Source of the DNA: Candidatus Poribacteria bacterium
Lineage (GTDB): Bacteria; Poribacteria; WGA-4E; WGA-3G
NCBI GenBank assembly: GCA_965237835.1
Contig: OZ250160.1
Span: forward strand, 2,530,146 to 2,594,145
DNA: 64,000 nucleotides
Direction of reading: 5' to 3'
Shown one piece after another: positions 570-48,355 of this stretch. Positions within the stretch are counted from its first letter, which is position 1. Every line of letters starts with the position of its first letter. The notes beneath the pieces were generated by a model. It made no database searches. It had not been told where the DNA came from and worked only from the letters and a program-made list of their open reading frames with translations. The position numbers and the translations under genes are program-made.

Positions 570-845
570 CTCTACATGCAGGGCTATTTAGTTCTCCGAA
601 TATTTAGATTTTCAATCTAAGACTTTCCGCTGTAGGAGCGATCTCCGAATCGCGACTTTTCGGATAAAATGGACAAAATGCCTAAAACTAAATAGCCCTG
701 CTCTACATGCAGGGCTATTTAGTTCTCCGAATATTTAGATTTTCAATCTAAGACTTTCCGCTGTAGGAGCGATCTCCGAATCGCGACTTTTCGGATAAAA
801 TGGACAAAATGCCTAAAACTAAATAGCCCTGACTCTACATGAAAC
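570..845. mobile_element. Two tandem copies of a ~122-bp MITE-like element (family 1), each flanked by the direct repeat CTCTACATG
   Basis: Unit cagggctatttagtt...aactaaatagccctg with 15-bp terminal inverted repeats, repeated twice. The same element recurs at 34589-34710 and 48234-48355. Confidence 0.7.
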
Positions 846-906
846 TAACAGAAATTGTCCAAACTTTAGTATAATTAAAACACTATATTCACATAAGGAG
901 AGACAC

Positions 907-1665
907 ATGTATAAACATAATACTGTTATTACGACTCTTTGCATGCTGTTGGTATTCGGCATGTTTGTAGGTTTTAGCGATGCTCAGATTGATCCTGAGA
1001 AGATCGTTGGCATCTGGTTACTTGACGAAAACAAAGGCGATGTTGCTGAAGATGCATCGGGAAACGGGTATGATGGGACAATTACCCAATCAGATTGGGT
1101 TGATGGGGAAGTTGATGGCGCGCTTGATATTAAGAAGGGCGGTACTGTTACGATTCCGTTCGGTAAAGGAGTCGTGACTGATAAAATGAGTTTCATTTTA
1201 TGGATTCAATTTACGGATATATCGGGACAGCAAAACTACTTCTCTATACATGATCAGAGCAGCAACCGCTATGTTCCATATAAAGAGGGACCAAATGTGC
1301 TACGTAGTTGGACAAATAATTGGAATGTTAGCAGTGGTGTCACCGTTAAGGCAGGGACTTGGTATCACGTAGCGAACACCTATGACGGTAACACTGCCAA
1401 GATTTATGTCAACGGCGAAGAAAAGGTTTCACAATCGGTGGCGAAGTTTCAACTCGTAGAAGAGGATCAAACAGCATGGCTTGCCACTGACAAAGGAGCC
1501 AGTTTTCAGTCTGCTTGTATCATGGACGATGTCGGTCTCTTCAACGATGCACTCACTAAAGAAGAGATTAATAACATCATGAATAACGGCATCTACCATA
1601 CTACTTTTGCAGTGGAACCTATAAGTAAACTGCCAATACTTTGGGGGAATCTGAAGAAGCCGTAA
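907..1665 (+). CDS. Secreted LamG/concanavalin-A-like lectin domain protein
   Basis: N-terminal signal peptide. GTWYHVANTYDGNTAKIYVNGEE is the hallmark of Laminin_G_3-type domains. Confidence 0.6.
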   Translation: MYKHNTVITTLCMLLVFGMFVGFSDAQIDPEKIVGIWLLDENKGDVAEDASGNGYDGTITQSDWVDGEVDGALDIKKGGTVTIPFGKGVVTDKMSFILWIQFTDISGQQNYFSIHDQSSNRYVPYKEGPNVLRSWTNNWNVSSGVTVKAGTWYHVANTYDGNTAKIYVNGEEKVSQSVAKFQLVEEDQTAWLATDKGASFQSACIMDDVGLFNDALTKEEINNIMNNGIYHTTFAVEPISKLPILWGNLKKP

Positions 1666-2050
1666 AAATATATTGCCTGTATAAGAAATCTCAATACTTC
1701 TACTCATGTATTGATTCATATCGCGAAAAACAGATTGACATTTGCCGAAAAATCTGTTAAAATTCACTACACAAAAACAGATGATACTAAATTAACTTGA
1801 TATTCTGCTATAGTGAGTATACCGAGGCACAGAGACCTCACAATACAAATCAGGTTAATATATAACAGTACCTATCCATTTCTTTTGATTTACTGAGTTT
1901 GTAGTCCTGCAGTTAATTGTGTAAAATTTATCTTACTACTGTAGAATATTGAAACCAACTATGTGTAAAAGTGTATAAATAAATAATTATTGATTTTGCC
2001 ATAGTTAAAAATAAATTTAACCTAATAAAAATAATTTAAAGGGTAATCTG

Positions 2051-10940: not shown

Positions 10941-11712
10941 ATGAAGACAGTTAAAAATTTTTCTTGGAAGAGGGAAATCGAGGATGGTGCGCTGCATCGT
11001 CGGTTTTTGGAAACAGGCAGCGAAGCAGCACTGCGTTTGCTTATGCAGAAGTACTATAAGCCAATTTGTAGTCACGTTTTCGCGATCTTGAAAGATCATC
11101 AAGATGCAGATGAAATCACAAATGAAACCTTCCTCAAAGCCTTCAATAAGAGGGAAACGATCAAGTATCCTGATAAACTCGTGAGTTGGTTATATAAGAC
11201 CGCGAAAAATGCGGCGATTGAGCGATTAAGAGCCAGACAACGAGATGTTCACCAGATGCTCGATTTAGTCTCTCTTGATAATTTGGATGCTGAAAGAGAA
11301 GCTGCAGCCGCATCAATATTTGCGGCACAGCAGATTGAGACTGATCAATACTTGTTGACAAGTCTGCTGCGACTTCATAACGGAAAAGGATCGTGAGGTT
11401 GTAGAATACTTATTAGATGACCTAAAGCCGAAGCAGATTGCTGAAGTGATAGACTCCACACCGGAAGCAGTTCAGAAAAGATGGGAACGGATACTCAAGT
11501 GGTTAAGCCCGATTGCTCACCGATTAGACGAACTGCTTAATAACCTTCCGCCTCAAGAACGGAAAATAATGGAACGGTATTTAGATAATCAACCTCTTGA
11601 AGAGATTAGTGAAAAATTAGGTATCTCCCCGACTAATGTTAAAGCATGCGTGAAACGTGTGATGAAGCAGTGGAAGAAAACCACAAGGCAAACGCCACGA
11701 AACGGAGGATAA
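10941..11712 (+). pseudogene. ECF (sigma-70 family) sigma factor, split by an apparent +1 frameshift near 11375-11380
   Basis: Region 2 (ETFLKAF, KLVSWLYKTAKNAAIERLRARQR) lies in frame 0 and ends at 11396. A region-4 HTH (EISEKLGISPTNVKACVKRV) continues in another frame to 11712. Deleting one A in the A-run restores LRLHNGKDREVVEYLLDDL. Confidence 0.6.
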
Positions 11713-11713
11713 T

Positions 11714-12472
11714 ATGCTTCGCGACATCTGGACAAATAAATGGTTTATCGGTGGCTTTGGTTTTCTGATTGTTTTCGCGGTGCTGTGTTACTTCTGGTAC
11801 CAACACGATATTGCGTCATTCCAACAACAGTTATCGGCTACCGGTGATATTGTCTTTCAAGGGGATCTATCTCAAAAGGCACAAAAAACCGTTCAAACAG
11901 ACGTGCCGCTGATAGAATCTCTTGAATCTGTAGAAAATAGGTCTGAATCTGTTAGGGATACGTCGGTTCCCACAGAGAAGACAACAGAAAAAACCGACAC
12001 GTTTGAGATAAACACAAATTTAACTGCGGATGCTCCTATCTCTCCCTTTGGATTTGGTGCGTATCCTGAAGTTCCCGCTGATTATCCGTTTCAGGAACAA
12101 CTTTGGGATAATGCCACGCCAGAGCATGAGTTGTTAGTCCGAGTCGAAGTTAAGTTATGGAAACAAGGCACACAAACTAAAGGCTCTATGTTTGATCCTA
12201 ATAATGGTCTCATTTATCCATCTATTCCTGGTGTCCTTTACGTGCAATGGCGTTACATTGAAGAAGGAGACCCAGATTTAGTAGGGCAACGGTATGCCGG
12301 TAGAGTAAGCGGTGACGGAGATACTGCTAAAAAGTGGCAATCCTTATACCTTACTGACCGTATGTTTGAACGCACAGACGTAACGCATGACACTGAGGCA
12401 TCAGGTATAAAGATTTATGAGTACCCAGACGGGGGTATAGACCCCTACAAATTCCTCGATTTAACGAGGTAA
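11714..12472 (+). CDS. Cassette protein X1: N-terminal signal-anchor TM helix plus a conserved ~150-aa C-terminal domain of unknown function
   Basis: TM segment WFIGGFGFLIVFAVLCYFWY. The C-domain SPFGFGAYPEVPADYPFQE...YEYPDGGIDPYKFLDL is shared with 15254-16051, 19810-20568 and 24258-25397. Confidence 0.7.
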   Translation: MLRDIWTNKWFIGGFGFLIVFAVLCYFWYQHDIASFQQQLSATGDIVFQGDLSQKAQKTVQTDVPLIESLESVENRSESVRDTSVPTEKTTEKTDTFEINTNLTADAPISPFGFGAYPEVPADYPFQEQLWDNATPEHELLVRVEVKLWKQGTQTKGSMFDPNNGLIYPSIPGVLYVQWRYIEEGDPDLVGQRYAGRVSGDGDTAKKWQSLYLTDRMFERTDVTHDTEASGIKIYEYPDGGIDPYKFLDLTR

Positions 12473-12482
12473 GGAAAATAAA

Positions 12483-13256
12483 ATGAAATTGTATCGTGTT
12501 CTTTTACTAATTTTCTGTTCAGGCATCCTCTTCGTTGGTGTCGTTAGTGATATTTCAGCAGCAGGTTTTGATCGTGACGGTCCCTATGAAGCTTCTGTAG
12601 ATGCCCGTCGCTTTGGCGGAAATGAAAACAGATTACATGTCAATTTGTATGCAAGGGCTTCTAGTACTGACCGAGCGAGAAATGGTTACTTGAATATATT
12701 TCTTAAGATAACTAACGGATGGTCAGTAGATCCGGCTGTTACCCCTGTTGATAGTCACGTCTGGCTTTGGGATCACCGTGATTTTCAGTTTGAAGAAAAC
12801 GGAGGCTATGTTTATGCATATGCTTCTGGACAAGACACAGGGAGAGCCTGGTATACCGCCTACACTGACGACACTGCGGAGCCGATGCCTCCTCCTGATC
12901 CTCCACCCGCCACCAACCCCACCAACCCCACCAACCCCGAACCACAATTGGGCATATCCCCCGTAGATCCAGATGACACTCCTTATCCCGGCGAAGCACA
13001 TGAGTACAGACTTGTCACAGATGCACCTTATTACTATGTGTATTGGTATGTGAAGGCACCTTGGGAGACAAGTGAACGCGGATCATATATAGGGAGTGAC
13101 TCAGGTGACGGCACGACAACTGAAGCAACATTCAGTTACACGTTCCCGAGCGGTGCAATGCATACTGGAGATTTTCTGATAACAGCGGTCATTTACCGGT
13201 GGTCAGATATGTCTGAGTATGAGGAGACCTATACTGCGACTGTGTTGTTAGATTAA
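12483..13256 (+). CDS. Cassette protein Y1: secreted protein with a variable N-domain, a Pro-rich linker and a conserved C-terminal domain
   Basis: Signal peptide. Linker PMPPPDPPPATNPTNPTNPEPQLGISPVDPDD. The C-domain (...YYYVYWYVKAPWETSERG...YEETYTATVLLD) is shared with 16066-16836 and 20579-21358. RBS-coupled 10 bp after X1. Confidence 0.7.
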   Translation: MKLYRVLLLIFCSGILFVGVVSDISAAGFDRDGPYEASVDARRFGGNENRLHVNLYARASSTDRARNGYLNIFLKITNGWSVDPAVTPVDSHVWLWDHRDFQFEENGGYVYAYASGQDTGRAWYTAYTDDTAEPMPPPDPPPATNPTNPTNPEPQLGISPVDPDDTPYPGEAHEYRLVTDAPYYYVYWYVKAPWETSERGSYIGSDSGDGTTTEATFSYTFPSGAMHTGDFLITAVIYRWSDMSEYEETYTATVLLD

Positions 13257-13292
13257 AAATTATGTCACATTTATCAGTATGAATAACAATAG

Positions 13293-13330
13293 ACAGGTAA
13301 CTTTGCGGTTACCTGTCTTCTCTTTTTATC
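13293..13330 (+). terminator. Rho-independent terminator after Y1 (copies follow Y2 and Y3)
   Basis: acaggtaac-tttgc-ggttacctgt followed by cttctctttttat. Confidence 0.6.
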
Positions 13331-13338
13331 AGAAAAAG

Positions 13339-13367
13339 TTGACATGTAACATGTATACGCGTATATT
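13339..13367 (+). promoter_or_regulatory. Near-consensus sigma-70 promoter upstream of the WD40 gene
   Basis: TTGACA, 17-nt spacer, TATATT. Identical in the duplicated intergenic segments at 16919 and about 21437. Confidence 0.5.
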
Positions 13368-13544
13368 ATCTGAACCAGGATTTTCAGGATTATCAGATTT
13401 TCAGGATTATAGATACTTCCTCAAATGAACAAGGACTTTGTTGAGAAATATAGATTTGAAGATAATACTAGCAGAAGATAGCCATCCATCTAAAAGCATA
13501 CTAATCCTGATAATCCCATAATCCTGTCCATCCTGGTTCAGACA
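13368..13544. repeat. ~177-bp element bounded by ~40-bp imperfect inverted repeats (tctgaaccaggatt...aatcctggttcaga), MITE-like family 2, forming the 5' leader of the WD40 gene
   Basis: Left arm tctgaaccaggattttcaggattatcag, right arm ctaatcctgataatcccataatcctgtccatcctggttcaga. A complete copy lies at 34728-34852 and partial copies near 31716, 52640 and 55385. Confidence 0.5.
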
Positions 13545-13643
13545 ATCCGAGATTTAGACAGAACCTTTGACATTTAATCCAACACATAGTAGAATAAACA
13601 CAACGTTAATTGGTATTAGAACAGCACATAGGAGAACACACCC

Positions 13644-14753
13644 ATGAGAAACAGATTGTTTTCAATTTTTACAGCACTGTTTGTAGCACTCCCATTTATG
13701 ACCTGCAGTCTCCCATCAGGTTCATTGGAGGATCCGCTGCATGATCCACAGCAAGCCCCGCAGCAAGAGCATTTACCCGAAGGCGCGAAAGGGCGCATCA
13801 AGAAAGACAGGATCAATGATATAGCGTATTCACCAGACGGCACAAAGCTCGCTGTAGCAGGTGGTAGCGGTATTTGGCTCTACGATGCACAGACAGGTCA
13901 TGAACTTGTCCAATTCGCAGGACATACCGGTAAAGTCCACAACGTGGCATTTAGTCCGGATGGAAAGACTATCGTAAGTGCCGGTACCAGTTACGATCGG
14001 ACCATTCGTATATGGGATGTGAACACGGGAAGAAACCTACGAACATTCAAATATCAGGTCTTTGACGTTGCGTTTAGTCCGGATGGAAAGACGATCATAA
14101 GTGGCAGTCATGACAAAAACCTCTACTTATTGGATGCGGACACAGGTAAACTCCTACGCACCCTCTCTGGGCATACGGATTTTGTCTGGTACGTGGCGTT
14201 TAGTCCGGACGGAAAAACTATTGCAAGTCGCAGTCAAGACCAGACCATTTGTCTGTGGGATGCGGACATAGGTAAACTCCTACAAACAATCACATGGCAT
14301 TCGCATCTGCCCAAGCATCCTCTCAAGCATCCTCTCAATACCGTAATTTTTAGTCCTGATGGAAAGATGATCGCAAGTGTTGGTGATGACCAGACTATTT
14401 GGCTGTGGGATGTGAACACGGGAAAACAACTACGAACAATCGCAAGAAACACGTCTCCTCATCGTAAGAACTTGGCATTTAGTCCGGATGGAAGCATGAT
14501 TGCATGTAACAATTGGAAGGATATTGATCTGTGGGATGTGAACACGGGAAAACTCCTACGAACACTCACAGGGTATCGGGAGAATAACCCACCGCGTCGG
14601 GACCGGTTCAGCGGACATATTTTAGGATCCCCCTGGGTCTTTATGGTGGTGTTCAGTCCGGATGGAAAGACTATCGCAGGTGCCAGTGGGCATGGCGTCC
14701 ATCTGTGGGATGTGAACACGGGATACCTCCAAAAACTCATCAGTGGTTTTTGA
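13644..14753 (+). CDS. WD40 repeat beta-propeller protein with N-terminal secretion/lipoprotein-like signal (WD40-1)
   Basis: Repeated [21 protein letters not shown] WD40 units. Signal [17 protein letters not shown]. Confidence 0.85.
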   Translation: MRNRLFSIFTALFVALPFMTCSLPSGSLEDPLHDPQQAPQQEHLPEGAKGRIKKDRINDIAYSPDGTKLAVAGGSGIWLYDAQTGHELVQFAGHTGKVHNVAFSPDGKTIVSAGTSYDRTIRIWDVNTGRNLRTFKYQVFDVAFSPDGKTIISGSHDKNLYLLDADTGKLLRTLSGHTDFVWYVAFSPDGKTIASRSQDQTICLWDADIGKLLQTITWHSHLPKHPLKHPLNTVIFSPDGKMIASVGDDQTIWLWDVNTGKQLRTIARNTSPHRKNLAFSPDGSMIACNNWKDIDLWDVNTGKLLRTLTGYRENNPPRRDRFSGHILGSPWVFMVVFSPDGKTIAGASGHGVHLWDVNTGYLQKLISGF

Positions 14754-14935
14754 TACGACCGCGCTGCGGTCTGTTGTAAAATGCCAATTTTCTGTTAGCG
14801 GAATTGTCCCTTAAATCTATCTATAAGAGAAAACTCTCATAGAATAATAGCATCTGTTTGCAAGCATTCCTATCTGGTTTTGTGAATTAAATTCTAAACG
14901 TCCCTGTTAATTTCTACTTGGTAAGGAGAAAAATC

Positions 14936-16051
14936 ATGAAATTTGTCAACTTCTGTCTGTTTACTACTTTTGTTCTTACAACAGTAATGCAAATCGGATG
15001 TTTGTCCGGTGGTGCGATGGGTACTGCGGAAAAATTAAGTGAGACGAAAGACTATCGCGGTGCATTAGAAGTCTATCAAAATGTTGTAGATACCAAACCC
15101 GGTACTGCTGACGCGCGCGCAGCACAACTCGCAATAGGTGAACTCTACATTGAGCATATACATTAACCCGAACAAGGGATTGAAACTTATGAAGCGGTCA
15201 TTGCTGAAGCACCCACAAGCGATGAAGCTGCAGAGGCACACTATCGTCTCGGGATGCACGCCTATCGCCAAAAAGACTATGACGCAGCGCAAACCCAATT
15301 TGGTACTATTGTTAACCATTTTTCGCATCTGGAATTGAGTCACAACGCACAACTGATGTCGGCAAAAAGTTATGAGGATGGGCAAAAATTTGAACAAGCT
15401 GTAGAAGTTTATGATAATTTTGCGAACCGCAACCCACAGAGTAAACGCGCTGCACAAGCCCTCGCCAATAAAGCACGAATACAACGCAAATTCCTTAAAG
15501 ATGATGATGAAGCGATACGTACCCTGCAATTATTAGTCATAAAATACGGCAAAATTAAGAGCGCAGAATCATACGTTAAAGAAGCTAAAAAAGTATTAAT
15601 TGAATTCAATGTCTCTCCTTTTGGATTTGGTGCATATCCTGAAGTTCCCGCCGATTATCCATTTCAGGAGCGACTTTGGGATAATGCCACGCCAGAGAAT
15701 GAGTTGTTAATCCGAGTTCAGATTAAGTTATGGAATCAAGGAACACGAACTAAAGGTGCAGCGTTTAGTAGTAATGGTCTCGTTTATCCCACAATTTCTG
15801 GTGTCCTTTACGTAGAATGGCGTTACATTGAAGAAGGTGACCCAGATTTAGTAGGGCGACGGTATGCCGGTACAGTAAGCGGTGACGGAGAGACTGCTAA
15901 AAAGTGGCGATCTTTATACCTTACTGACCGTATGTTTGAGCGCACAGACGTAACGCATGACACTAAGGTATCAGGTATAAAGATTTATGAGTATCCAGAT
16001 GGAGGAATAGACCCCTACAAATTCCTCGATTTACCGAGGCAAGGAGAATAA
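14936..16051 (+). pseudogene. Cassette protein X2: TPR lipoprotein carrying the conserved X C-domain, interrupted by an in-frame TAA at 15164-15166
   Basis: The intact paralog at 24258-25397 reads CAA (Q) where this copy reads TAA. Lipobox MQIGC. TPR-like helices. The downstream ORF 15254-16051 carries the X C-domain. Confidence 0.6.
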
Positions 16052-16065
16052 AATGAAACTGTCCA

Positions 16066-16836
16066 GTGTTTTTTTACTTTTCATGCGTTGTCCTCTTCGT
16101 TGTTGCAGTTGGTGATATTTCAGCAGCTGTTGGACAGGACGGTCCCTATACTGCTGAAGCATACGGCTATCGCGTGGGCGGAATTAATAATGACAGATTA
16201 AATGTCAGTTTGTCTGGTAGGGCTAGTAGTACTGTGTTTGGAAGTGACGGTTATTATAAAATAGAGTTATTTAAAGAACTACCCAGCGGATGGAGTATAA
16301 TTGCTGAACAGGACGAGGTTGATACACATGGTGGTCAAATTGATGGCCACTTCTATGTAAACCTAGACTTAGATCTTCCTAGGGAAGAATACGCATGCTT
16401 TATTGACGTTGATGTTAGTGGTAGAGCGACAAATGGAAGGTACTGTTTTGCGGATGCTGATGAATATGTGGGACCGATGCCTCCACCTCCCCCTAATCCT
16501 CAACTCATCATCGACCCCGAACCACAAGTGGGCATATCCTCCGTAGATCCAGATGACACTCCTTATCCGGGGAACACATACGAGTTCAGACTTATCACAG
16601 ATGTCCATTATTATTGGGTGGACTGGTATGTGAAAGCACCCTGGGAGACAAGTGAAAGGGGAACACATATAGAAGGTCAATTAGGAGATGGCGAGACAAC
16701 TGAATCTACATTCAGTTACACGTTCCCGAGCGGTGCAATGCATACTGGAGATTTTCTGATAACAGCGGTCATTTACCGGTGGTCAGATATGTCTGAGTAT
16801 GAGGAGACCTATACTGCGACTGTGTTGTTAGATTAA
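16066..16836 (+). CDS. Cassette protein Y2 (secreted; variable N-domain, conserved C-domain); the native ATG at 16053 is out of frame through a T7 homopolymer, so the ORF opens at a GTG
   Basis: The ATG at 16053 reads into a TGA. A T7 run at 16068-16074 sits in the signal-peptide codons. The C-terminal 100 aa are almost identical to Y1 and Y3. Confidence 0.55.
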   Translation: MFFYFSCVVLFVVAVGDISAAVGQDGPYTAEAYGYRVGGINNDRLNVSLSGRASSTVFGSDGYYKIELFKELPSGWSIIAEQDEVDTHGGQIDGHFYVNLDLDLPREEYACFIDVDVSGRATNGRYCFADADEYVGPMPPPPPNPQLIIDPEPQVGISSVDPDDTPYPGNTYEFRLITDVHYYWVDWYVKAPWETSERGTHIEGQLGDGETTESTFSYTFPSGAMHTGDFLITAVIYRWSDMSEYEETYTATVLLD

Positions 16837-17223
16837 AAATTATGTCACATTTATCAGTATGAATAACAATAGACAGGTAACTTTGCGGTTACCTGTCTTC
16901 TCTTTTTATCAGAAAAAGTTGACATGTAACATGTATACGCGTATATTATCTGAACCAGGATTTTCAGGATTATCAGATTTTCAGGATTATAGATACTTCC
17001 TCAAATGAACAAGGACTTTGTTGAGAAATATAGATTTGAAGATAATACTAGCAGAAGATAGCCATCCATCTAAAAGCATACTAATCCTGATAATCCCATA
17101 ATCCTGTCCATCCTGGTTCAGACAATCCGAGATTTAGACAGAACCTTTGACATTTAATCCAACACATAGTAGAATAAACACAACGTTAATTGGTATTAGA
17201 ACAGCACATAGGAGAACACACCC

Positions 17224-18333
17224 ATGAGAAACAGATTGTTTTCAATTTTTACAGCACTGTTTGTAGCACTCCCATTTATGACCTGCAGTCTCCCATCAGG
17301 TTCATTGGAGGATCCGCTGCATGATCCACAGCAAGCCCCGCAGCAAGAGCATTTACCCGAAGGCGCGAAAGGGCGCATCAAGAAAGACAGGATCAATGAT
17401 ATAGCGTATTCACCAGACGGCACGAAGCTCGCGGTGGCAGGTGGTAGCGGTATTTGGCTCTATGATGCACAGACAGGTCATGAACTTGTCCAATTCGCAG
17501 GACATACCGGTAAAGTCCACAACGTGGCATTTAGTCCGGATGGAAAGACTATCGTAAGTGCCGGTACCAGTTACGATCGGACCATTCGTATATGGGATGT
17601 GAACACGGGAAGAAACCTACGAACATTCAAGTATCAGGTCTTTGACGTTGCGTTTAGTCCGGATGGAAAGACGATCATAAGTGGCAGTCATGACAAAAAC
17701 CTCTACTTATTGGATGCGGACACAGGTAAACTCCTACGCACCCTCTCTGGGCATACGGATTTTGTCTGGTACGTGGCGTTTAGTCCGGACGGAAAAACTA
17801 TCGCAAGTCGCAGTCAGGACAAGACCATTTGTCTGTGGGATGCGGACATAGGTAAACTCCTACAAACAATCACATGGCATTCGCATCTGCCCAAGCATCC
17901 TCACAAGCATCCTCTCAATACCGTAATTTTTAGTCCTGATGGAAAGATGATCGCAAGTGTTGGTGATGACCAGACTATTTGGCTGTGGGATGTGAACACG
18001 GGAAAACAACTACGAACAATCGCAAGAAACACGTCTCCTTATCGTAAGAACTTGGCATTTAGTCCGGATGGAAGCATGATTGCATGTAACAATTGGAAGG
18101 ATATTGATCTGTGGGATGTGAACACGGGAAAACAACTACGAACACTCACAGGGTATCGGGAGAATAACCCATCGCATCGGGACCGGTTCAGCGGACATAT
18201 TTTAGGAAACCCCAGCATCTTTACGGTGGTGTTTAGTCCGGATGGAAAGACTATCGCAGGTGCCAATAGGCGTGGCGTCCATCTGTGGGATGTGAACACG
18301 GGGTACCTCCGAAAACTCATCAGTGGTTTTTGA
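17224..18333 (+). CDS. WD40 repeat lipoprotein-like protein (WD40-2), near-identical to WD40-1
   Basis: 369 aa with only a few substitutions relative to 13644-14753. The upstream 387 bp is identical to 13257-13643. Confidence 0.85.
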
Positions 18334-18351
18334 TACGACCGCGCTGCGGTA

Positions 18352-18579
18352 TTAGGTATTTAGAACAGCACAAAAGGAGAACACACCCATGAAAAATAGC
18401 ACGAAACCAACTTTGTTGACATTTCCAACGCAAACCCTCCTCTTTGAGCCATTCCCAGATCGTTGAATCAGAAGATGAATACCCGTTTTCTCTGTAAACG
18501 CAGTTTGCAATCGTCCCAGTGTCCATACCTCAAATGGATAACCGAGACTACGCGGTTTTTGCAACGCTAAATCTATCAT
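18352..18579 (-). pseudogene. Remnant of an IS630-family transposase N-terminal HTH region
   Basis: [24 protein letters not shown]...RSGNGSKRR resembles the winged-HTH region of IS630/Tc1 transposases. Only ~75 aa remain. Confidence 0.35.
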
Positions 18580-19808: not shown

Positions 19809-19809
19809 T

Positions 19810-20568: not shown

Positions 20569-20578
20569 GGAAAATAAA

Positions 20579-30039: not shown

Positions 30040-30850
30040 GTAGGTCGGGTAGAGCGTCCGCGAAACCCATAAGCGTCAATTTAAGAAAAGTCTGCGTTTT
30101 TATAAACACCTCTCAATAAGCATGAGGACTGAGATTGTCTTATATTTAGTCCCGTAGGGACGAAATGTTTATAGTACCTCGTCCTGCAAACCCATCTCTT
30201 CAGCTCCGTAGGAGCGAAATGTGTATAACGTCTTATTATAAACATATTGCCCCGCTGGGGAAATCAAAGAGCATTTTTCATATTTGAAATATCACTAAAT
30301 TGACGCCTATGGGTAGAGCGTCCGCGAAACCCGACAAGATTATTGTATCAGCACATGCCGGGTTTCGCTCTGCTCTACCCATAGGCGTCAATTTAAGAAA
30401 AGTCTGCGTTTTTATAAACACCTCTCAATAAGCATGAGGACTGAGATTGTCTTATATTTAGTCCCGTAGGGACGAAATGTTTATAGTACCTCGTCCTGCA
30501 AACCCATCTCTTCAGCTCCGTAGGAGCGATATGTGTATAACGTCTTATATAAACATATCGCCCCGTTGGGGAAATCAAAGAGCATTTTTCATATTTGAAA
30601 TATCACTAAATTGACACCTATGGGTTTCGCTCTGCTCTACCCATTAACGTCAATTTAGGCGTTTTTTGAGAATGAGACATGCTCTTTAATCCCGTAGGGA
30701 CGCAATGTTTATAGCAACGGAGGCACCCCCCCAATTCTTTAGCCCCGACGAATGCCATACGCGCATTCGGCGTTGATTTGGTAAGGGCGGAATGTTTATA
30801 ACGTGTTATTTCACATCTCACAATTAAAAAGTTGACATCTGCCCTTAGAT
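30040..30850. repeat. Mosaic REP/BIME-like repeat cluster: two ~300-bp units of hairpin modules delimited by taaattgacgcctatg...palindrome REPs
   Basis: The unit aagaaaagtctgcg...cccgtagggacgaaatgtttatag...ccgtaggagcgaaatgtgtataac...ccccgctgggg occurs twice. Related clusters lie at 36895-37510 and 49400-50120. Confidence 0.6.
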
Positions 30851-32499: not shown

Positions 32500-32630
32500 C
32501 TTTTATTGTAGGGGTGGGCCCCGTGCCCGCCCGTCTCCCGAAATCTGTAGGGGCGGGACCGCGTGCCCGCCCATCTCCCGAAATCTGTAGGGGCGGGACC
32601 CCGTGCCCGCCCGTTTTTGTATAATTCACA
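32500..32630. repeat. Array of three ~40-bp REP elements (GTAG plus the palindrome gggcggg...cccgccc) flanking the RAYT gene
   Basis: The unit tctGTAGgggcgggaccccgtgcccgcccgtctcccgaaa is repeated three times. Confidence 0.7.
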
Positions 32631-32634: not shown

Positions 32635-33201
32635 TTATTCTGAATGTTCCAGTTCCCATTTGCGAACATTGTTGTAGATATACTCCCGCACAGATCGCAA
32701 AGCACCATCATTTCGGATAACATGGTCATGAAACGAAATTTCCCACAATTTCTTGCTAAACCGTTGCCAACCATTTTGCTTAACACCTTGGATGTATTGG
32801 TTTGTTGTTAAGGATTTGAACCGTTCCATTAGTGTGATTAAAGAAATTGATTCTTTTGAATCTGAAGGTTGCTTTGAAGTAGACAAATCTCCTCTTTCTA
32901 TCCTATTGTATTTTGGTTTGATGATAAGAATGCCATGGAAGTGGTCGGGCATGACTTGGAAAATATCTAATTCAATCTGCGGTGAATATAGCGGCAATTC
33001 TTGCCAAGTTGTTTTTACCATGTGACCGGCATCCGTTAATACAATTTTGCCGTTTTGCAGGTGTGCAAATAGACAAAAGCGGTTCTTTGTTGTGAGTGTT
33101 ACGAAATACCATCCGGGTTGGGAATAGTCATATCCAGGGAGGCGAAGGCTTTCGGATTTGGGGTAATACATCTTTTCTTTATTTCGGATGTAGCGGGGCA
33201 C
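32635..33201 (-). CDS. REP-associated tyrosine transposase (RAYT; IS200/IS605-like Y1 HUH enzyme)
   Basis: HUH motif PDHFHGIL. C-terminal Tyr motif REYIYNN. 188 aa. GTAG-palindrome REPs on both sides. Confidence 0.7.
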   Translation of the reverse strand: MPRYIRNKEKMYYPKSESLRLPGYDYSQPGWYFVTLTTKNRFCLFAHLQNGKIVLTDAGHMVKTTWQELPLYSPQIELDIFQVMPDHFHGILIIKPKYNRIERGDLSTSKQPSDSKESISLITLMERFKSLTTNQYIQGVKQNGWQRFSKKLWEISFHDHVIRNDGALRSVREYIYNNVRKWELEHSE

Positions 33202-33258
33202 GGGGTCCCCGCGCTACGTTTCTGCGGGGCACGGGGTCCCCGCGCTACAGTTATTCCA
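33190..33258. repeat. Two REP copies (reverse orientation) on the other flank of the RAYT gene
   Basis: gcggggcacggggtccccgcgctac twice. The reverse complement is GTAGcgcggggaccccgtgccccgc. Confidence 0.65.
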
Positions 33259-33259: not shown

Positions 33260-34504
33260 TTATTCCACCGGTTGATATTTAGCTGCATCCACAAAATAGA
33301 GGAAGCCAATGCACATTTCATCTGTGGTTTTGTCTCCCCAACCGACGGGGACAGGTGGGTCGTGCGGGTTGGCTGGGTTCTTGACAGAATTGTCAAAGTG
33401 CGCAACAAGTGAAATACGCGTGCCAGCAGGAAGGAAGATCGGTTTACGATAATGATAGATGTCTTGCCAGTTGAAATCCCAATCCTGTATCCAGATAATA
33501 TCAATCGGATCGCCTGTCGGCGGTTTCGCAATGATCCGCATATCGCGTCCGAGCAGATGCATGTGTGGCATCGTGGCTAACAGATAACTATCCTTTTTGA
33601 CTTGACGCGATGCTTTCACAGGATACTTCGCCTCTCCGGCGGGGATTACGAATTTGTCGTTGATCGCCATACCGATCTCTAAAGGCGTTGTCTCCGGCGT
33701 TTTGGAGAAGTAAAGCCCAACTCGTGATTGGTCGCGTTCCGTGTGCCCAGTGCGGTAGTAATGCACCTGTAGCACGATGTCAGCACCTTTCGGTAACAGA
33801 TACCCGACACCTTTCGGTAGAACGGAAGGTCTGAGACCGGGTGCCCATCCGCCAAGTGTTCCCGCTGAATCAATGCCTGGACCGGTACCTTGTGTGACAT
33901 ACCCGGGTTTCGGGTCTTTCGCAGCAAGTTTACGGGCTTCTTCCTTCGTATCTAAATAGACAATGACGTGATGCACTGTCCTGCGGTTGCCCGGTTGAAC
34001 ATCAACGGCTTGGACATATATGTCTGTGTCAAAGTTGGTGGGAATGATAAAGTGCCGATATTCGTCTTCACCTTCCGGTTCAATTTCGTATTCCACTGGC
34101 ATTTCAAAGATATGATCAGGTTCACCGAGTGCCCACCCATCGTGGAATTTGGGGTTCGGTGGTGTTTTTGAGAGATCGCCTGCTGGTTTCCCTGCTTCTG
34201 CCCATTTGGTGATCATCTCAATCTCTTTGTCGGTGAGTCTACGTTCGTTTTTGAATTCACCATGTCCGACTGTTGGTTTCCAAGGCGGCATCAGGCGCGC
34301 TTTGGTGTATTCAGCAATTTCGGTCGCCCATGCTTTGGCGTCTCTATAGTCAGTGAGTGCAAAGGGTGCGACTTCACCTTGACGATGGCAGGATTGACAC
34401 TGTTTCTGTAGAATCGGTGCGATGTGTTCGCTGTAGGTGACTTCTGCCCGTAGGCAGGGTGCAAGTAGTGTAAACGTGATAAGTATGATTAAGAACTTTC
34501 TCAT
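33260..34504 (-). CDS. Secreted PSCyt1 (planctomycete-type cytochrome c) domain protein fused to a DBH/PHM-like copper monooxygenase-like domain
   Basis: Signal peptide. Haem motif CQSCH within HIAPILQKQCQSCHRQGEVAPFALTDY. Candidate Cu ligands HHVIVY, H~65 aa later, HMH and a downstream Met, spaced as in copper type II monooxygenases. Confidence 0.55.
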   Translation of the reverse strand: MRKFLIILITFTLLAPCLRAEVTYSEHIAPILQKQCQSCHRQGEVAPFALTDYRDAKAWATEIAEYTKARLMPPWKPTVGHGEFKNERRLTDKEIEMITKWAEAGKPAGDLSKTPPNPKFHDGWALGEPDHIFEMPVEYEIEPEGEDEYRHFIIPTNFDTDIYVQAVDVQPGNRRTVHHVIVYLDTKEEARKLAAKDPKPGYVTQGTGPGIDSAGTLGGWAPGLRPSVLPKGVGYLLPKGADIVLQVHYYRTGHTERDQSRVGLYFSKTPETTPLEIGMAINDKFVIPAGEAKYPVKASRQVKKDSYLLATMPHMHLLGRDMRIIAKPPTGDPIDIIWIQDWDFNWQDIYHYRKPIFLPAGTRISLVAHFDNSVKNPANPHDPPVPVGWGDKTTDEMCIGFLYFVDAAKYQPVE

Positions 34505-34588
34505 CGGTTCTGGATTGTCCTCCGGTTTTGTAGTTTGTTTATATTATAGTTTATTTGGTGGTGGATGTCAATCAAATTGACTATCTGT

Positions 34589-34710
34589 CAGGGTTATTTA
34601 GTTTTAGGCTTTTTGTCCATTTTATCCGAAAAGTCGCGATTCGGAGATCGCTCGGACAGCGGAAAGTCTTAAATTGAAAACCTAAATATTCGGAGAACTA
34701 AATAGCCCTG
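34589..34710. mobile_element. MITE-like element family 1 (single copy) with 8-bp target-site duplication CTATCTGT
   Basis: TIRs cagggttatttagtt / aactaaatagccctg. Flanking direct repeat ctatctgt. Confidence 0.65.
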
Positions 34711-34727
34711 ACTATCTGTAGCTTGCT

Positions 34728-34854: not shown

Positions 34855-35130
34855 AAAGCGGTGCGGTTAGGAAACCGCACCTTATGCGTCAATTTAGTGA
34901 TTTTTCGAATATAAAAAAGGCTCTTCAGTCCCGTAGGGACGATATGTTTATAGTACACCGTATAGACACGTCTCTTTAGCTCCGTAGGAGCGACATATCC
35001 CGATTCCTAATCCGATGCTAAAACATACCACCCTTACGGGCCTCAAGAGATTGACCGCCTCGTTTTCTATAAACATTGCGTCCCTACTCTCATACACGGA
35101 AAACCACTAAATTGACGCCTATGGGATCCG
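34855..35130. repeat. REP / hairpin-module cluster
   Basis: gcggttaggaaaccgcaccttatgcgtcaattta followed by several ccgtagggacgatatgtttatag-type modules. Confidence 0.5.
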
Positions 35131-36894: not shown

Positions 36895-37510
36895 TATGAA
36901 AAATGCTCTTTGATTTCCCCAGCGGGGCGATATGTTTATAGAAAAAGTGCTACCCCTAACTCTTTGGTTTCCCCAGCGGGGCAATATGTTTATAATAAGA
37001 CGTTATATACATTTCGCGGAGCTGAAGAGATGGGTTTGCAGGACAAGGTACTATAAACATATCGTCCCTACGGGACTAAATATAAGACAATCTCAGTCCT
37101 CATGCTTATTGAGAGGTGTTTATAAAAACGCATATTTTTCTTAAATTGACGCCTATGGTGCGGTTAGGAAACCGCACCATAGGCGTCAATTTAAGGAAAC
37201 GTCTATGTTTTTATGAACCCTTATCAATAGGCATGGTTATTGATATTGTCGGACATTTAGTCCCGTAGGGACGATATGTTTATAGTACACCGTCCAGACA
37301 CGTCTCTTTAGCTCCGTCCGAGCGACATATCCCGATTGGTAACCCATTGCTATAAACATTCCGCCCCTACGGGGCTGAAGAGATTGGGGTTACCACGTTT
37401 TCTATAAACATATCGTCCCTACGGGACTGAAGAGCATTTCTCATATTTGAAAAACTACTAAATTGACGCCTATGGTGCGGTTAGGAAACCGCACCTACCG
37501 GACCTGGGGA
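36895..37510. repeat. Mosaic REP/BIME-like cluster (reverse-orientation copy of the 30.0-30.8 kb unit plus extra modules)
   Basis: The perfect palindrome taaattgacgcctatggtgcggttaggaaaccgcaccataggcgtcaattta lies near 37141. Multiple hairpin+ATGTTTATA modules. Confidence 0.6.
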
Positions 37511-45459: not shown

Positions 45460-45760
45460 TTCCGGATGGTAAGTGCGGTTTCCGAACCGCACCTTATGCG
45501 TCAATTTAGTGGTCCCCAACCCGGCAGGAGCGGTTTCTAACCGAACCTTTTTGTATCAACATCTCAAATAACGCAAAGGACGAGAATATCAGTGTTCGTA
45601 GTCGCGCAATTCACGCGCCTCTTTTCTTTGAATGTAAGAGGCGCGTGAATTGCGCGACTACAAACGAGTTCTTTCCTTAAATTGACGCTTATGGTGCGGT
45701 TTCCTAGCCGCACTGATAGATTGGAATCAAGTTAATTTGGTATTAGTTTCCCTTTAGTTT
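45460..45760. repeat. Cluster of three REP families (A: GTAG-gtgcggtt..aaccgcac; C: GTAG-tcgcgcaattc..attgcgc; E-type tail)
   Basis: ggtaagtgcggtttccgaaccgcacc, cgtagtcgcgcaattcacgcgcc...ggcgcgtgaattgcgcgactac, ggtgcggtttcctagccgcac. Confidence 0.55.
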
Positions 45761-46216
45761 CTATTTCTGTTCAATGGTTCTCTCTTGTAAGGACGACTTC
45801 CTAAATAAAATGCGCGAAATCTTAAACAAAATTACCCCGTGAAGTTGGTAAAATTCTTTTACATTTCCTGCAAATGGTAGTAAAATAGGGTGAATTTATA
45901 CGCTACAAGGATCTCCAGGAATCTAACTATGGATGTTGAACTACCGAAAGAGAAATATGATCAATTAATCAATGACGGTTACTGTGTCGTTGAACATGTC
46001 TTAAAGGAAGCTATGCTCTCACAACTTAGATCAGTAACCGACGAATTGCTTGACGCACAGACAGATGATGAACGCGATGCACACCGTTCGTCTGGTAGCA
46101 TGATTAGTGTGTATAAACATTCTTTTTTTGCTGAACTGGTAGTTTATCCTGAAGCATTACGGACCCTTGATGCTTTGGGATTTTTGAGACCAAAATGGTC
46201 GTCAGGATATGTCATC

Positions 46217-47669
46217 GGGTGTGTAAAGTTTTTGGCATGAACATCACGCAGCTTTTGTATTTGGATACCAATATCTGTCCCAGGCATCATTCTTCAACAA
46301 ACACCGCCAAGAAAGCACAGCATTGATCCCCGGTTTCTCCCATCTCATAGAAGCTTGTTTGCATCTTTGTCCGACAACATGTTTACATGCACTCTCAATC
46401 ACACCACTTCCAATCTGATACCCCTTTTCCCGAAACTTTTTATACCGCATACGATCAGAATGTTTTTCAAAATACTTCGCTTCTCTTTCTAAGGTTTCAC
46501 ATACTTCCAGGTTTTGAGCAGCTAAGTTTCGGATGCGTGCGACTACTTCTGTGATGTTGCCAGCGTCCAGCAGGGGTTCCACCTCTTTTATCCATTTTCC
46601 GGTAGTTTCTGTTTCAGTCTCTCCGAAGGCGTGTTTGGCAACATTGAACAGATGAGATTTGGCGTGCATATAATCCACAATCTCAACAGCGTTTGGGAAG
46701 TATTTATCAGCTAAGTTCCAAATCCACGCCGCACCATCTCCGATAAAGACAATCTCCTGGTTTGTTATAGTTTCTTTATAGATACCAATGTTCGTTGCTA
46801 ACGCAAACAACTCCTTACCAAAGTGTTCCGCATCAGAACGACTGGCAATATACCGGATGCTTGATGTTCTGGCACTCGGTGTCGCATCAGAACCGTGTTG
46901 TGGATAGTCTTTGTAAATACAGCCAACTTTCACCTCATGCCACCCATCAGGTGAGTTCGTGTGGCACCCATCACAACTCACATACCACCGCTGATTGTCT
47001 TCAAGCGTTTGTGTTTCCACCTGTTCTGGCACACACAACGCTTCTGACCATTCACCCACTTTTTGATGCAGTGTCGTGTGGCTGACTTCTATCCCCTGAC
47101 GCGACAACTCCTCAGAGGCTTCTCTAAAGTCAAGACGCGCGGCCAAGCGACACATCGCTTCTGCCACACGACGCGTGTATTGTCCACGCAACTTTTGCTT
47201 AGCATCCCACGGCACATAGGTATGTCCAAGAGCACAACGATACACCCAACGCTCAACACTAATAACGCCACAAAGCGTCGTGAAATGTCGCTCTCTCAGA
47301 CGCAACGGACGACATGCTCGGCGACACTCAGGACATTCAATAGGTTCACGGACTTTCTCACCAGCCTCTTTAGAGATGCACATCTCTAAAAGCCTTTGTT
47401 CCCACGAACGAACCGCTTCAGATACAAGAACCTCCGCATCTTCTAACGATACACACCCCTCTGAGGTGATGTCTCTCACAAGATCGTTCACTTCTTCTAC
47501 AAACTTGTTCGCTTCTTCTCTAAACTCATTGATTTCACAACTTTTTAATGATATACTAAACATTGGTATCCTCCTTGATAAATGGAAGTTTTAGGAAGGA
47601 TACCATTTTTATGAATATATCGCAAGTTCTCCACTCAAATCACATTCATGCCAAAAACTTTACACACCC
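46217..47669 (-). mobile_element. Intact IS element (ISKra4-like) with 25-bp perfect terminal inverted repeats and a 9-bp target-site duplication TATGTCATC
   Basis: The left end gggtgtgtaaagtttttggcatgaa equals the reverse complement of the right end ttcatgccaaaaactttacacaccc. tatgtcatc is duplicated at both junctions. Confidence 0.75.
46244..47563 (-). CDS. Transposase (ISKra4-like family, DDE type)
   Basis: 439-aa ORF filling the IS, with N-terminal Zn-finger-like CPECRRAC...C..C and a DDE-like core (IVFIGDGAAWIWN...DYMHAKSHL). Confidence 0.6.
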   Translation of the reverse strand: MFSISLKSCEINEFREEANKFVEEVNDLVRDITSEGCVSLEDAEVLVSEAVRSWEQRLLEMCISKEAGEKVREPIECPECRRACRPLRLRERHFTTLCGVISVERWVYRCALGHTYVPWDAKQKLRGQYTRRVAEAMCRLAARLDFREASEELSRQGIEVSHTTLHQKVGEWSEALCVPEQVETQTLEDNQRWYVSCDGCHTNSPDGWHEVKVGCIYKDYPQHGSDATPSARTSSIRYIASRSDAEHFGKELFALATNIGIYKETITNQEIVFIGDGAAWIWNLADKYFPNAVEIVDYMHAKSHLFNVAKHAFGETETETTGKWIKEVEPLLDAGNITEVVARIRNLAAQNLEVCETLEREAKYFEKHSDRMRYKKFREKGYQIGSGVIESACKHVVGQRCKQASMRWEKPGINAVLSWRCLLKNDAWDRYWYPNTKAA

Positions 47670-48233
47670 TATGTCATCAGCAAACCCGCTCAGAGTCCAC
47701 CCCTCTTTTGGCATCAGGATTGGTGGGGTTGGAACGACCCGTGCAGCTACACAGCATTACCCCAGCAGCTATTTTTGATGTATTATCTGGTTGACACAAC
47801 ACCATATAACGGATGCCTTCGCGTAATAAAAGGTTCGCACCTTAAGCGGCATCCACTCCATGATATATTGCCAAACGCACATGGTGCGGAACTGCAGCGT
47901 GTGGAAAATCCGAACCATCCCGTATTTCAGCATTTCCCTGATGAGGTAGACATAATCGTAAATGCTGGTGACCTCGTTATCGGTGATTCTCGCCTGTTGC
48001 ATGCCTCACACGGCAATCAATCTGATGAACACCGCACAGTCATAACGCTTTGGTATCACCCGTTTTTCGCGCTATTACCGGCAGGGATGCAAGCACATAT
48101 AGGTAGGCTTAGACAGAGTCTCGCTTGGACAGATGCAGATTGGGAACGGATTGCTGAACTTGTCCCAGTTTTTGAAGGAGATGCTGAACCTATGAAATGG
48201 AATCGAGCACCTGGACCTGAACTGACATAACAA

Positions 48234-48355
48234 CAGGGCTATTTAGTTCTCCGAATATTTAGATTTTCAATCTAAGACTTTCCGCTGTAGGAGCGATCTC
48301 CGAATCGCGACTTTTCGTCTAAAATGGACAAAAAGTCTAAAACTAAATAACCCTG
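48234..48355. mobile_element. MITE-like element family 1 (single copy) with 8-bp TSD CATAACAA
   Basis: TIRs cagggctatttagtt / aactaaataaccctg, flanked by cataacaa on both sides. Confidence 0.65.

Follow-up and report, generated by a model that had tools for sequence, protein, structure and literature searches.

What kind of repeat occurs four times in a 64-kb stretch of a Candidatus Poribacteria genome (the whole stretch analyzed, hereafter the window), which enzyme moves it, and how did two of its copies come to lie side by side? The window is located at about 1.57–1.64 Mb of a 5.93-Mb contig (ENA ERZ26167216), a 47.6x circular assembly that is the only one available for the strain, the ENA and NCBI deposits being the same contig. 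A first-pass annotation had described the repeat as an active-looking 122-bp MITE family with 15-bp inverted ends (TIRs) and short target-site duplications (TSDs). All of the coordinates given for that family were confirmed, and four copies were found (Table 1); we refer to this 122-bp element as MITE-A.

A 122-bp element polymorphic between related strains

The 15-bp TIR, CAGGGCTATTTAGTT, is perfect in copies 1 and 2; in copies 3 and 4, which are 95.1% and 95.9% identical to copy 1, respectively, one of the two arms has a single mismatch. Searching the window with the TIR gave eight element-end matches at no more than one mismatch, and at no more than three mismatches there were 10 matches against 1.46 expected, a number reached in 0 of 100 shuffles. 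The copies align right up to the TIR tips and no further; outside the TSDs, their flanks are unrelated. MITE-A is noncoding, with no listed ORF of at least 100 aa overlapping any of the four copies, and it folds into a long hairpin (z = -5.1 to -5.4). It is not a known RNA, since an Rfam scan of the whole window returned no family at gathering score. A promoter and terminator consensus scan of positions 400–1000 gave no plus-strand match within the MITE that exceeded the level expected from shuffles, and one weak terminator-like match across the junction of the tandem pair. The TAA stop codon of the ORF at 47775–48230 falls inside the left TSD of copy 4.

Table 1. Positions of MITE-A, its flanking repeats and hairpin cores in the window, and of full-length insertion sequences (IS) from the same genome
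Feature	Position	Strand	Remarks
MITE-A copy 1	579–700	+	122 bp; TIRs at 579–593 and 686–700
MITE-A copy 2	710–831	+	100% identical to copy 1
MITE-A copy 3	34589–34710	- (consensus orientation)	84 bp upstream of the ATG of gene 33260–34504 (-)
MITE-A copy 4	48234–48355	+	Between two PhyH-family genes
Tandem pair, left target, A+CTCTACATG	569–578		Empty allele in L134 is a single ACTCTACATG
Tandem pair, 9-bp spacer CTCTACATG	701–709		Read as TSD of the second insertion
Tandem pair, right 10-bp TSD ACTCTACATG	832–841		65 bp upstream of the ATG of LamG-domain gene 907–1665
Copy 3 TSD ACTATCTGT (9 bp)	34580–34588 (left), 34711–34719 (right)
Copy 4 TSD CATAACAA (8 bp)	48226–48233 (left), 48356–48363 (right)
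REP-type core CTGTAGGAGCGATCTCCGAATCGCGAC, copy 1	630–656	+	GTAG, 5–6-bp stem-loop, GAC
REP-type core, other copies	761–787, 48285–48311, 34633–34659	+, +, -	34633–34659 is a GTCC variant
Same-genome IS L116	2862–4153 of L116		1292 bp; TIR exact match to MITE-A; without TSD
Same-genome IS L120	1362–2653 of L120		1292 bp; TIR with 1 mismatch; 9-bp TSD CAATGCAAC

Exact-protein look-ups of three window genes matched the source contig only, and orthologous sites were reached through members of 90%-identity clusters. Copy 3 has an exact empty site in OZ244616.1 (L127), the tandem pair has one in L134, and copy 4 has exact empty sites in L141, L143, L144, L145, and L148. When the MITE and one TSD copy are removed, the window aligns across every junction with 96.7–98.4% identity to the related strains. 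These exact empty sites, at least one for each of the three window insertions, demonstrate mobility, and MITE-A copies have moved since closely related strains split. The comparison of insertion polymorphism between strains proposed in the first-pass annotation thus gave a positive answer at all three window loci, and the assignment as a MITE stands, the element being 122 bp long, noncoding, and bounded by TIRs and TSDs, with empty sites for each insertion. Nor is it a fragment of a larger repeat, the alignment ending at the TIR tips and the empty sites being exact. The term active-looking is justified in an evolutionary sense, given polymorphism between lineages ∼2–3% diverged and intact, identical IS copies; present-day activity lies beyond the reach of sequence.

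The TSDs in the window measure 9 bp at copy 3, 8 bp at copy 4, and 9 or 10 bp at the tandem pair. A scan of GTDB species genomes for the TIR yielded at least 114 stretches, mostly from Poribacteria MAGs (at least 78 by record title), and every inverted TIR pair among the matches listed was in Poribacteria. Across Poribacteria MAGs, at least 32 distinct TIR-bounded elements of 122–1292 bp have perfect TSDs, showing that the flanking direct repeats are reproducible; their length is 9 bp in 23 of the 32 elements, 10 bp in 7, and 8 bp in 2. Size variants with the same ends range from 122 to 919 bp. Patterns specific to MITE-A had no match in the JGI metagenomes scanned. The 23 nine-bp target sites, as read and symmetrised, yielded no consensus motif, with a maximum of 0.36 bit per position over 25 positions tested (single-position null: 95% = 0.26 bit, 99.8% = 0.52 bit). 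A resemblance of the flanks to the inner TIR, suspected by eye, was discarded because the position matrix gave no support.

A probable ISAs1-family partner and a REP-type core

The window itself contains an ISKra4-like IS (46209–47677; 33-bp TIR ATGTCATCGGGTGTGTAAAG...; transposase NF033572 at 239 bits), and its TIR and that of MITE-A are unrelated, as first noted. The accompanying suggestion that the mobilizing transposase is encoded elsewhere was borne out by a search for an autonomous IS with the same TIRs and 8–9-bp TSDs: at least two full-length, 1292-bp ISAs1-family IS with the MITE-A TIR are present on the same 5.93-Mb contig at ∼3.88 and ∼4.13 Mb, 2.3–2.5 Mb from the window, one of them with a TSD (Table 1). 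Their transposases, P0041 (L116) and P0131 (L120), match NCBIfam NF033564 over the whole model at 247–248 bits (cut-off 70), and the transposase of the proposed partner is a DDE-type protein of 375 aa encoded by an intact ORF. A transposase identical to P0131 is found at eight places in related assemblies, six of which show a 9- or 10-bp TSD. The full-length IS copies L116 and L117 have no TSD, and neither does L014, a 1316-bp element that has the same TIR and encodes an ISAs1 transposase of 387 aa (NF033564 at 205 bits; Pfam DDE_Tnp_1_assoc and DDE_Tnp_1). L014 was rejected as the direct parent of MITE-A, with which it shares no more than the TIR and ∼26 bp of one end; the 1292-bp IS is the closer partner, being from the same genome and having one copy with the exact TIR. 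Compared with ISAs1-family transposases from plasmid records, the Poribacteria enzyme reaches no more than 38% identity, which makes the autonomous IS an undescribed, divergent member of the family.

Beyond the TIR, MITE-A shows ∼40 bp of diverged similarity to the IS on the IRL side and, on the IRR side, similarity broken by a 9-bp insertion. The homology is clearer for the 193-bp MITE-B, which is identical to the IS ends over 24–27 bp and about 85% identical thereafter. Since its ends beyond the TIR have clearly diverged from the present IS, MITE-A, unlike MITE-B, is not a recent deletion derivative. We consider it very probable that the four repeats are a MITE derived from an ISAs1-family IS of the same genome, MITE-A presumably retaining, at either end, diverged homology to the IS over ∼40 bp. 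The DDE transposase would recognize the common 15-bp TIRs, which start CAGGG, and make a staggered cut at insertion, usually of 9 bp (range 8–10), with repair giving rise to the flanking direct repeats; the transposase of the 1292-bp ISAs1-family IS would thereby mobilize MITE-A in trans.

At the center of MITE-A lies a hairpin that conforms to the REP definition that we used (PMC3733652). The internal GTAG and hairpin reported in the first reading are indeed REP-type sequence in copies 1, 2, and 4, but copy 3, like many proliferated copies, has GTCC in place of GTAG. In the core stem, 87.5% of cells are paired and four of six pairs have double changes, with 0 of 500 shuffles as good; compensatory changes have preserved the hairpin in different Poribacteria species. 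The same core, CTGTAGGAGCGATCTCCGAATCGCGAC, occurs elsewhere in Poribacteria loci, either free or as inverted pairs, and the window contains a RAYT-like ORF (32635–33201; NF047646 at 51 bits, short of the cut-off of 80), both of which would fit a REP/REPIN-type repeat whose transposase is a RAYT (Y1/HUH), for example that one, and whose inverted ends are incidental. That account is almost certainly wrong: MITE-A has 8–10-bp TSDs and ends identical to those of an ISAs1 IS, whereas REPINs have neither; each element contains one REP rather than an inverted pair; the GTAG tag is lost in the copies named above; and, in the 64-kb window, the RAYT-like ORF is flanked by a different REP type, GTAGGGGCGGGACCCCGTGCCCGCCC. 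A link between this RAYT, which has its own flanking REPs, and MITE-A was rejected. In the ISAs1-derived MITE, the single hairpin may be a passenger or an accessory.

Two abutting copies at one site

The 131-bp unit of the tandem pair is 100% identical in its two occurrences. The three copies of CTCTACATG that bound the elements are not equivalent, because the outer repeat is 10 bp (ACTCTACATG, read as A+CTCTACATG in the left flank) and the middle one 9 bp. Abutting head-to-tail pairs were found at five independent sites, comprising the window and four others, all with spacers of 7–10 bp; no spacers of 0–6 or 11–30 bp were found among them. Two of these pairs are of nonidentical elements: an IS with a MITE-B-like element (L122), and a truncated MITE-B with MITE-A' (L139). 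We regard the tandem pair as probably the outcome of two successive insertions, the first of which would have duplicated the 10-bp ACTCTACATG; an identical copy would then have inserted abutting the first and duplicated the 9-bp CTCTACATG. Repeated insertion into a regenerated target, as originally proposed for this pair, is therefore the better-fitting model, in view of the 9-bp middle and 10-bp outer repeats and the nonidentical abutting pairs elsewhere.

Local duplication of the MITE together with its TSD, through slippage during replication or through unequal crossover and with no second transposition, would explain why the 131 bp are 100% identical when independent copies differ by 4–5%, and a segmental tandem duplication of MITE-A does exist in OZ244616.1 (L031; 179-bp unit, shared right flank). 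Crossover between 10-bp ACTCTACATG repeats, however, predicts a 132-bp unit and a 10-bp middle repeat, while an original TSD of 9 bp predicts no extra A at position 832, such that the 9/10 pattern needs an additional 1-bp event. TSD-length spacers also join nonidentical elements, and duplication is impossible in the L122 and L139 pairs because the joined elements differ. We judge duplication rather unlikely for the window pair. The identity of the two copies could also reflect turnover at a fixed site, in which a resident such as MITE-B drew in an abutting MITE-A and was then replaced, by gap repair from MITE-A or by direct-repeat deletion, leaving two identical MITE-A copies that inherited the older 10-bp TSD.

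Consistent with such turnover, three related loci (L129, L131, and L138) carry the 193-bp MITE-B at the same site with exactly the same 10-bp TSD, ACTCTACATG; the copy 4 site in L139, L142, and L147 is occupied by an inverted MITE-A' with an abutting truncated MITE-B; and there is no target consensus to account for independent hits on the same nucleotides. The scheme nevertheless needs several unobserved steps, and its intermediate, MITE-A followed by MITE-B, was not found at the tandem site in the strains compared; we hold it to be distinctly unlikely. That only one copy is real, the second having arisen from collapse or expansion of the repeat during long-read assembly, is more doubtful still. 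There is a single assembly of the strain, and short tandem repeats are sometimes miscounted, but the contig comes from a 47.6x circular assembly, the 9/10-bp asymmetry is unlike a simple repeat-count error, and similar abutting pairs are present in independent assemblies. Two successive insertions remain our preferred explanation.

Relation to known systems and consequences

ISAs1 elements have 14–22-bp inverted repeats starting CAGGG and 10-bp direct repeats (PMC11946415), as exemplified by ISArsp11 (1306 bp; inverted repeat CAGGGCTGATGC...; 10-bp direct repeat) (PMC6305408), and an ISAs1-family element of Frankia has been reported to insert repeatedly at one locus (PMC11946415). The MITE-A TIR, which starts CAGGG and at 15 bp falls within 14–22 bp, the TSDs of 8–10 bp, and the partner IS, with ∼1.3 kb, one ORF, and DDE_Tnp_1_assoc and DDE_Tnp_1 domains, resemble this family, which includes ISAs1 of Aeromonas salmonicida, ISArsp11, and H-repeat/YbfD-YdcC-type transposases. 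They differ in that the window elements are noncoding 122-bp derivatives and in that the modal TSD in Poribacteria is 9 bp, compared with the 10 bp cited (PMC11946415, PMC6305408). Like the classical MITEs (Correia/NEMIS, RUP, Nezha, MITEAba12, and MaeMITEs), MITE-A is small and noncoding, has IS-like TIRs, TSDs, and multiple size variants, is intergenic just upstream or downstream of genes, folds into a long hairpin, and is probably mobilized in trans by a cognate IS transposase. Unlike them, its parent family is ISAs1, its host belongs to an uncultivated sponge-symbiont phylum, and its core consists of a REP-type hairpin, not of sequence from the IS interior. No described ISAs1-derived MITE was found in a limited literature search, in which absence is not proof. 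With REP/REPIN and RAYT systems MITE-A shares the 27-bp core, in which a GTAG tag is followed by a stem-loop whose stem is maintained through compensatory changes; it departs from them in its DDE-type TIRs and TSDs, its one REP instead of an inverted pair, and a GTAG that is dispensable in many copies.

Elements of the IS30, IS21, and IS3/IS911 types show IR targeting, in which insertion occurs at, or beside, the ends of the element itself. The copies of the MITE-A family similarly abut a resident end, head to tail and one TSD length apart, at the five independent sites, whereas end-adjacent insertion in the Poribacteria family is read from genome comparisons only. Transposition in the ISAs1 family has, to our knowledge, been little studied, and we know of no documented case of insertion against own ends for ISAs1. 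A broader proposal, which we put forward tentatively and think unlikely to hold in full, is that the Poribacteria ISAs1-type transposase preferentially inserts against ends of its own family, producing both tandem arrays and fixed-site turnover, and that MITE-A is a hybrid with a functionally required REP hairpin serving its spread or its tolerance by the host, for instance as a terminator.

MITE-A is an ordinary kind of mobile DNA with two curiosities, namely insertion sites that are used again and a REP core. It offers a documented case, from a sponge-symbiont phylum that is uncultivated, in which a MITE, an autonomous IS partner of the ISAs1 family, and exact empty sites are found together. 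For the genomics of Poribacteria, MITE-A marks strain-level polymorphism and breaks short-read assemblies; five Poribacteria contigs end exactly at a TSD. The element lies 65–102 bp upstream of three genes, whose expression it could change. Different family members have used identical sites, and this, together with the TSD-spaced abutting pairs, suggests a targeting rule for ISAs1 transposases.

The MITE-A family and its autonomous partner

The four 122-bp repeats in the window (MITE-A; Table) are a MITE of the ISAs1 family that has an autonomous partner in the same genome and is polymorphic among close relatives. The first-pass annotation had read them as an active-looking MITE family whose transposase is probably encoded elsewhere; its coordinates all agree with the sequence, and its interpretation is borne out by the target-site duplications (TSDs), the same-genome IS and the empty sites. 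Identity to copy 1 is 100% for copy 2, 95.9% for copy 4 and 95.1% for copy 3, and likeness between copies ends exactly at the tips of the 15-bp terminal inverted repeat (TIR), CAGGGCTATTTAGTT, for which the window has 10 matches at up to three mismatches, where 1.46 would be expected (0 of 100 shuffles reach 10). The flanking repeats are reproducible in other copies: across all loci compared, perfect TSDs flank 32 distinct TIR-bounded elements, 122-1292 bp long, and measure 9 bp (23/32), 10 bp (7/32) or 8 bp (2/32). An Rfam scan of the whole window returned no match.

Positions of features, in window coordinates unless an L-numbered Poribacteria contig stretch is named
Feature	Position	Strand	Detail
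MITE-A copy 1	579-700	+	122 bp
MITE-A copy 2	710-831	+	122 bp
MITE-A copy 3	34589-34710		consensus orientation on minus strand
MITE-A copy 4	48234-48355	+	122 bp
Tandem-pair repeats	570-578; 701-709; 832-841		CTCTACATG; CTCTACATG; ACTCTACATG
Copy 3 TSD	34580-34588 / 34711-34719		ACTATCTGT
Copy 4 TSD	48226-48233 / 48356-48363		CATAACAA
MITE-B	L129 1233-1425; L131 924-1425; L138 927-1425		further nested insertion in L131 and L138
ISAs1-family IS	L116 2862-4153		1292 bp
IS palindrome	L116 2928-2961; L014 5981-6014		15-bp stem
IS605 OrfB/TnpB-like genes	L116 4765-5244; L117 1-23; L118 1-86		Cas12f-like TNB domain
RAYT-like gene	32635-33201	-	Y1 transposase
GTAG REPs of the RAYT-like gene	32508-32610; 33190-33250
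Inverted pair of the hairpin core	L089 5265-5330
REP tandem array	L039 7672-7990		47-bp units
Second MITE-like family	30069-30310; 30381-30621; 34882-35122; 37179-37473; 45494-45692; 49439-49733; 49756-50062; 52371-52540
ISKra4-family IS	46209-47677		1469 bp
ISKra4-family transposase	46244-47563	-	NF033572, 239 bits
PhyH ORF	47775-48230		151 aa
Repeated gene cassette	11500-25400

The TIR (CAGGGYTATTTAGTT) was scanned against one genome per GTDB species (596 Gb), which gave at least 114 stretches. Among the matches listed, 78 came from Candidatus Poribacteria MAGs, counted by record titles, and the other 36 were single matches in unrelated taxa, by our estimate no more than chance would give for 15 bp in a search space of this size; every inverted TIR pair among the matches listed was in Poribacteria. 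The closest complete relative, OZ244616.1, carries 122-bp copies with 86-96% identity to copy 1.

One stretch, L014 (OY282386.1), holds between the same TIRs a 1316-bp element with a 387-aa ORF, an ISAs1-family transposase (NCBIfam NF033564, 205 bits, cut-off 70; Pfam DDE_Tnp_1_assoc and DDE_Tnp_1). A protein search with it led to a transposase, P0041, whose gene is on the same contig as the window, which is also ENA ERZ26167216 ctg495931_47.62x_c (5,928,137 bp; window at ~1.573-1.637 Mb). A candidate for the mobilizing IS that the annotation had expected elsewhere is on the same contig: both TIRs of the 1292-bp IS in L116 equal the MITE TIR with no mismatch, and a second copy on that contig (L120, ~4.13 Mb) is 96.7% identical, with the 9-bp TSD CAATGCAAC. 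Their transposases score 247-248 bits and match the ISAs1 model over its full length. Genes for one identical protein, P0131, lie at eight places in related assemblies, L120 and L121 being one insertion site in two samples, with 9-bp TSDs GGTAGGCGC, CAATGCAAC, CCGTAACCC and AAGGCGACC, a 10-bp TSD CATTTGACAT, 9 bp plus an extra CCCTG, and at one place no TSD.

Published ISAs1-family elements have inverted repeats of 14-22 bp beginning CAGGG and 10-bp direct repeats (PMC11946415), as in ISArsp11 (1306 bp, IR CAGGGCTGATGCAAAGTCG, DR 10 bp; PMC6305408), and the Poribacteria IS and MITE-A fit this description. Against ISAs1-family transposases on plasmid records, the transposase of the Poribacteria IS reaches no more than 38% identity, which makes this IS an undescribed and divergent member of the family. 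In most other short TIR-bounded elements the IS-type sub-termini are retained at both ends (TTTTCGGTTTT and TTTTAAGAATT), which makes these elements plain deletion derivatives. MITE-A is more diverged past the 15-bp TIR, with ~40 bp of recognizable similarity to the IS on the IRL side, interrupted on the IRR side.

The autonomous IS carries a conserved palindrome with a perfect or near-perfect stem, placed after IRL and before the start codon of the transposase gene; the MITE lacks it. The palindrome has compensatory differences between the two IS lineages (GCAGATGTCGCGTGA... / GCAGATATAGCGTGA...) and may be a regulatory hairpin. IS605 OrfB/TnpB-like genes lie near several of the IS copies.

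Empty sites, re-used sites and abutting insertions

Comparison of strains brought out the insertion polymorphism, with empty sites for copy 3 (OZ244616.1: ...GCAAACT ACAGATAGT CAATTTAATTGACATCC..., the 9-mer once and no element), the tandem pair (L134: ...CATTCCTC ACTCTACATG AAACTAAC...) and copy 4 (L141, L143, L144, L145 and L148: ...GAACTGA CATAACAA GATTTAATTTG...). Removing the MITE and one TSD copy from the window sequence gives alignments over the empty-site junctions at 96.7-98.4% identity. Five short-read contigs stop exactly at ACTCTACATG, as expected of an assembler meeting a repeat.

All three MITE-A sites are intergenic, alike in orientation relative to the downstream gene, and the MITE lies upstream, its nearest end 75 bp (LamG-domain gene), 84 bp (copper-monooxygenase-like) and 102 bp (PhyH-family) from the start codon. 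No promoter-like site was found inside MITE-A. Copy 4 has inserted at the stop codon that ends an upstream PhyH remnant, the stop being regenerated by the TSD; contigs with the empty copy 4 site have this gene intact (279 aa). An ISKra4-family IS with 33-bp TIRs appears to have truncated it to the 151-aa ORF.

The target of the tandem pair, as read from the empty allele, was ACTCTACATG. A first MITE-A insertion would have produced its 10-bp TSD and a second would have duplicated the adjoining CTCTACATG, and this two-step model gives the observed A[CTCTACATG]M[CTCTACATG]M[ACTCTACATG] (M, MITE-A; first A at 569) with no further change. The annotated 9-mer boundary is present at all three places, but the right outer repeat is the 10-bp ACTCTACATG. 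Double insertion is the reading we moderately favor, with duplication, e.g., by unequal crossover, and gap-repair turnover remaining as rivals. Duplication is possible in principle, a 179-bp-unit segmental duplication of a MITE-A copy being present in L031, but unequal crossover of 10-bp repeats would yield a 132-bp unit, whereas the observed unit, 100% identical, is 131 bp, and had the original TSD been 9 bp, the A at 832 would be missing.

Elements form abutting head-to-tail pairs at five independent sites (the window, L011, L050, L122 and L139/L142/L147), with spacers of 9, 9, 10, 8 and 7 bp and none of 0-6 or 11-30 bp; given placement within 30 bp, we calculate ~(4/31)^5 = 4e-5 for all five falling at 7-10 bp. 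The pairs in L122 (full IS beside a MITE-B-like element) and L139 (truncated MITE-B beside an inverted MITE-A', a subfamily member) unite unlike elements and cannot be duplications.

Insertion sites are also re-used. MITE-B, a 193-bp element with the same TIR, occupies the tandem site with the same 10-bp TSD in L129, L131 and L138, and at the copy 4 site L139, L142 and L147 have an oppositely oriented member of a MITE-A subfamily, adjoined by a truncated MITE-B. No target consensus emerged from 23 nine-bp sites. The transposase may be attracted by resident ends, with element turnover, or else the sites may be structural hot spots; repeated insertion at one locus has been reported for a Frankia ISAs1-family element (PMC11946415). 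MITE-B itself has IS-like sub-termini, and its core is a REPIN built from a different type of REP (GTCGGGTAGAGCGGTAGCGAAACCCGAC ... GTCGGGTTTCGCAAACTCTACCCGAC).

The hairpin core and neighboring repeats

The annotated internal GTAG plus hairpin, CTGTAGGAGCGATCTCCGAATCGCGAC, is present in the MITE copies, although copy 3 lacks the GTAG. Within the window the core occurs only inside MITE copies; in other Poribacteria loci it is free, in inverted pairs (L089, L028, L082) or in tandem arrays (L039, each unit with REP GTAGGAACGGCTTCC[C/T]AGCCGTGAC). It has the GTAG-tagged architecture of REP elements (PMC3733652), with stem variants including GCGAT/ATCGC, GGGAA/TTCCC, GCGACC/GGTCGC, GGGATT/AATCCC and ACGGCT/AGCCGT. 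In a small, hand-collected set of 12 MITE-A-like elements from different genomes, 87.5% of cells in the 6-bp stem are paired, both-sided changes affect 4/6 pairs, and the covariation score is matched by 0/500 shuffles, slid controls being far lower. This pattern indicates that the hairpin is maintained in the MITE-A lineage.

Identification of the whole of MITE-A as a REPIN was rejected: GTAG is replaced by GTCC or GTCG in 7/16 aligned copies, copy 3 among them, and the REP type around the window's RAYT-like gene (NF047646, 51 bits, cut-off 80; Pfam Y1_Tnp, 22.9 bits, cut-off 23) differs from the MITE core. That gene has GTAG REPs of its own: TGTAGGGGCGGGACCCCGTGCCCGCCC stands three times in tandem to one side of it, and the opposite side has two inverted copies. 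Judged from these sequences, the lineage does not seem to need RAYT recognition in order to spread.

A second, commoner MITE-like family (TIR ATAGGCGTCAATTTA; 20 ends versus 0.17 expected; elements of ~170-307 bp) has the REP-like hairpin GGTGCGGTTAGGAAACCGCACC on both sides of each element, and one copy lies inside MITE-B's REPIN in both L131 and L138, with a 22-bp duplication, as if the family targeted and duplicated REP hairpins. The window also holds three to four copies of a gene cassette, 85-100% identical in nucleotide sequence, with two ~250-aa ORFs (no Pfam match) and a ~370-aa WD40 beta-propeller protein.

A limited literature search found no described ISAs1-derived MITE and, among titles and abstracts, no description of MITEs in Poribacteria. 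Three features deserve specialist attention: the end-abutting insertions, the re-use of sites and the covarying REP core.
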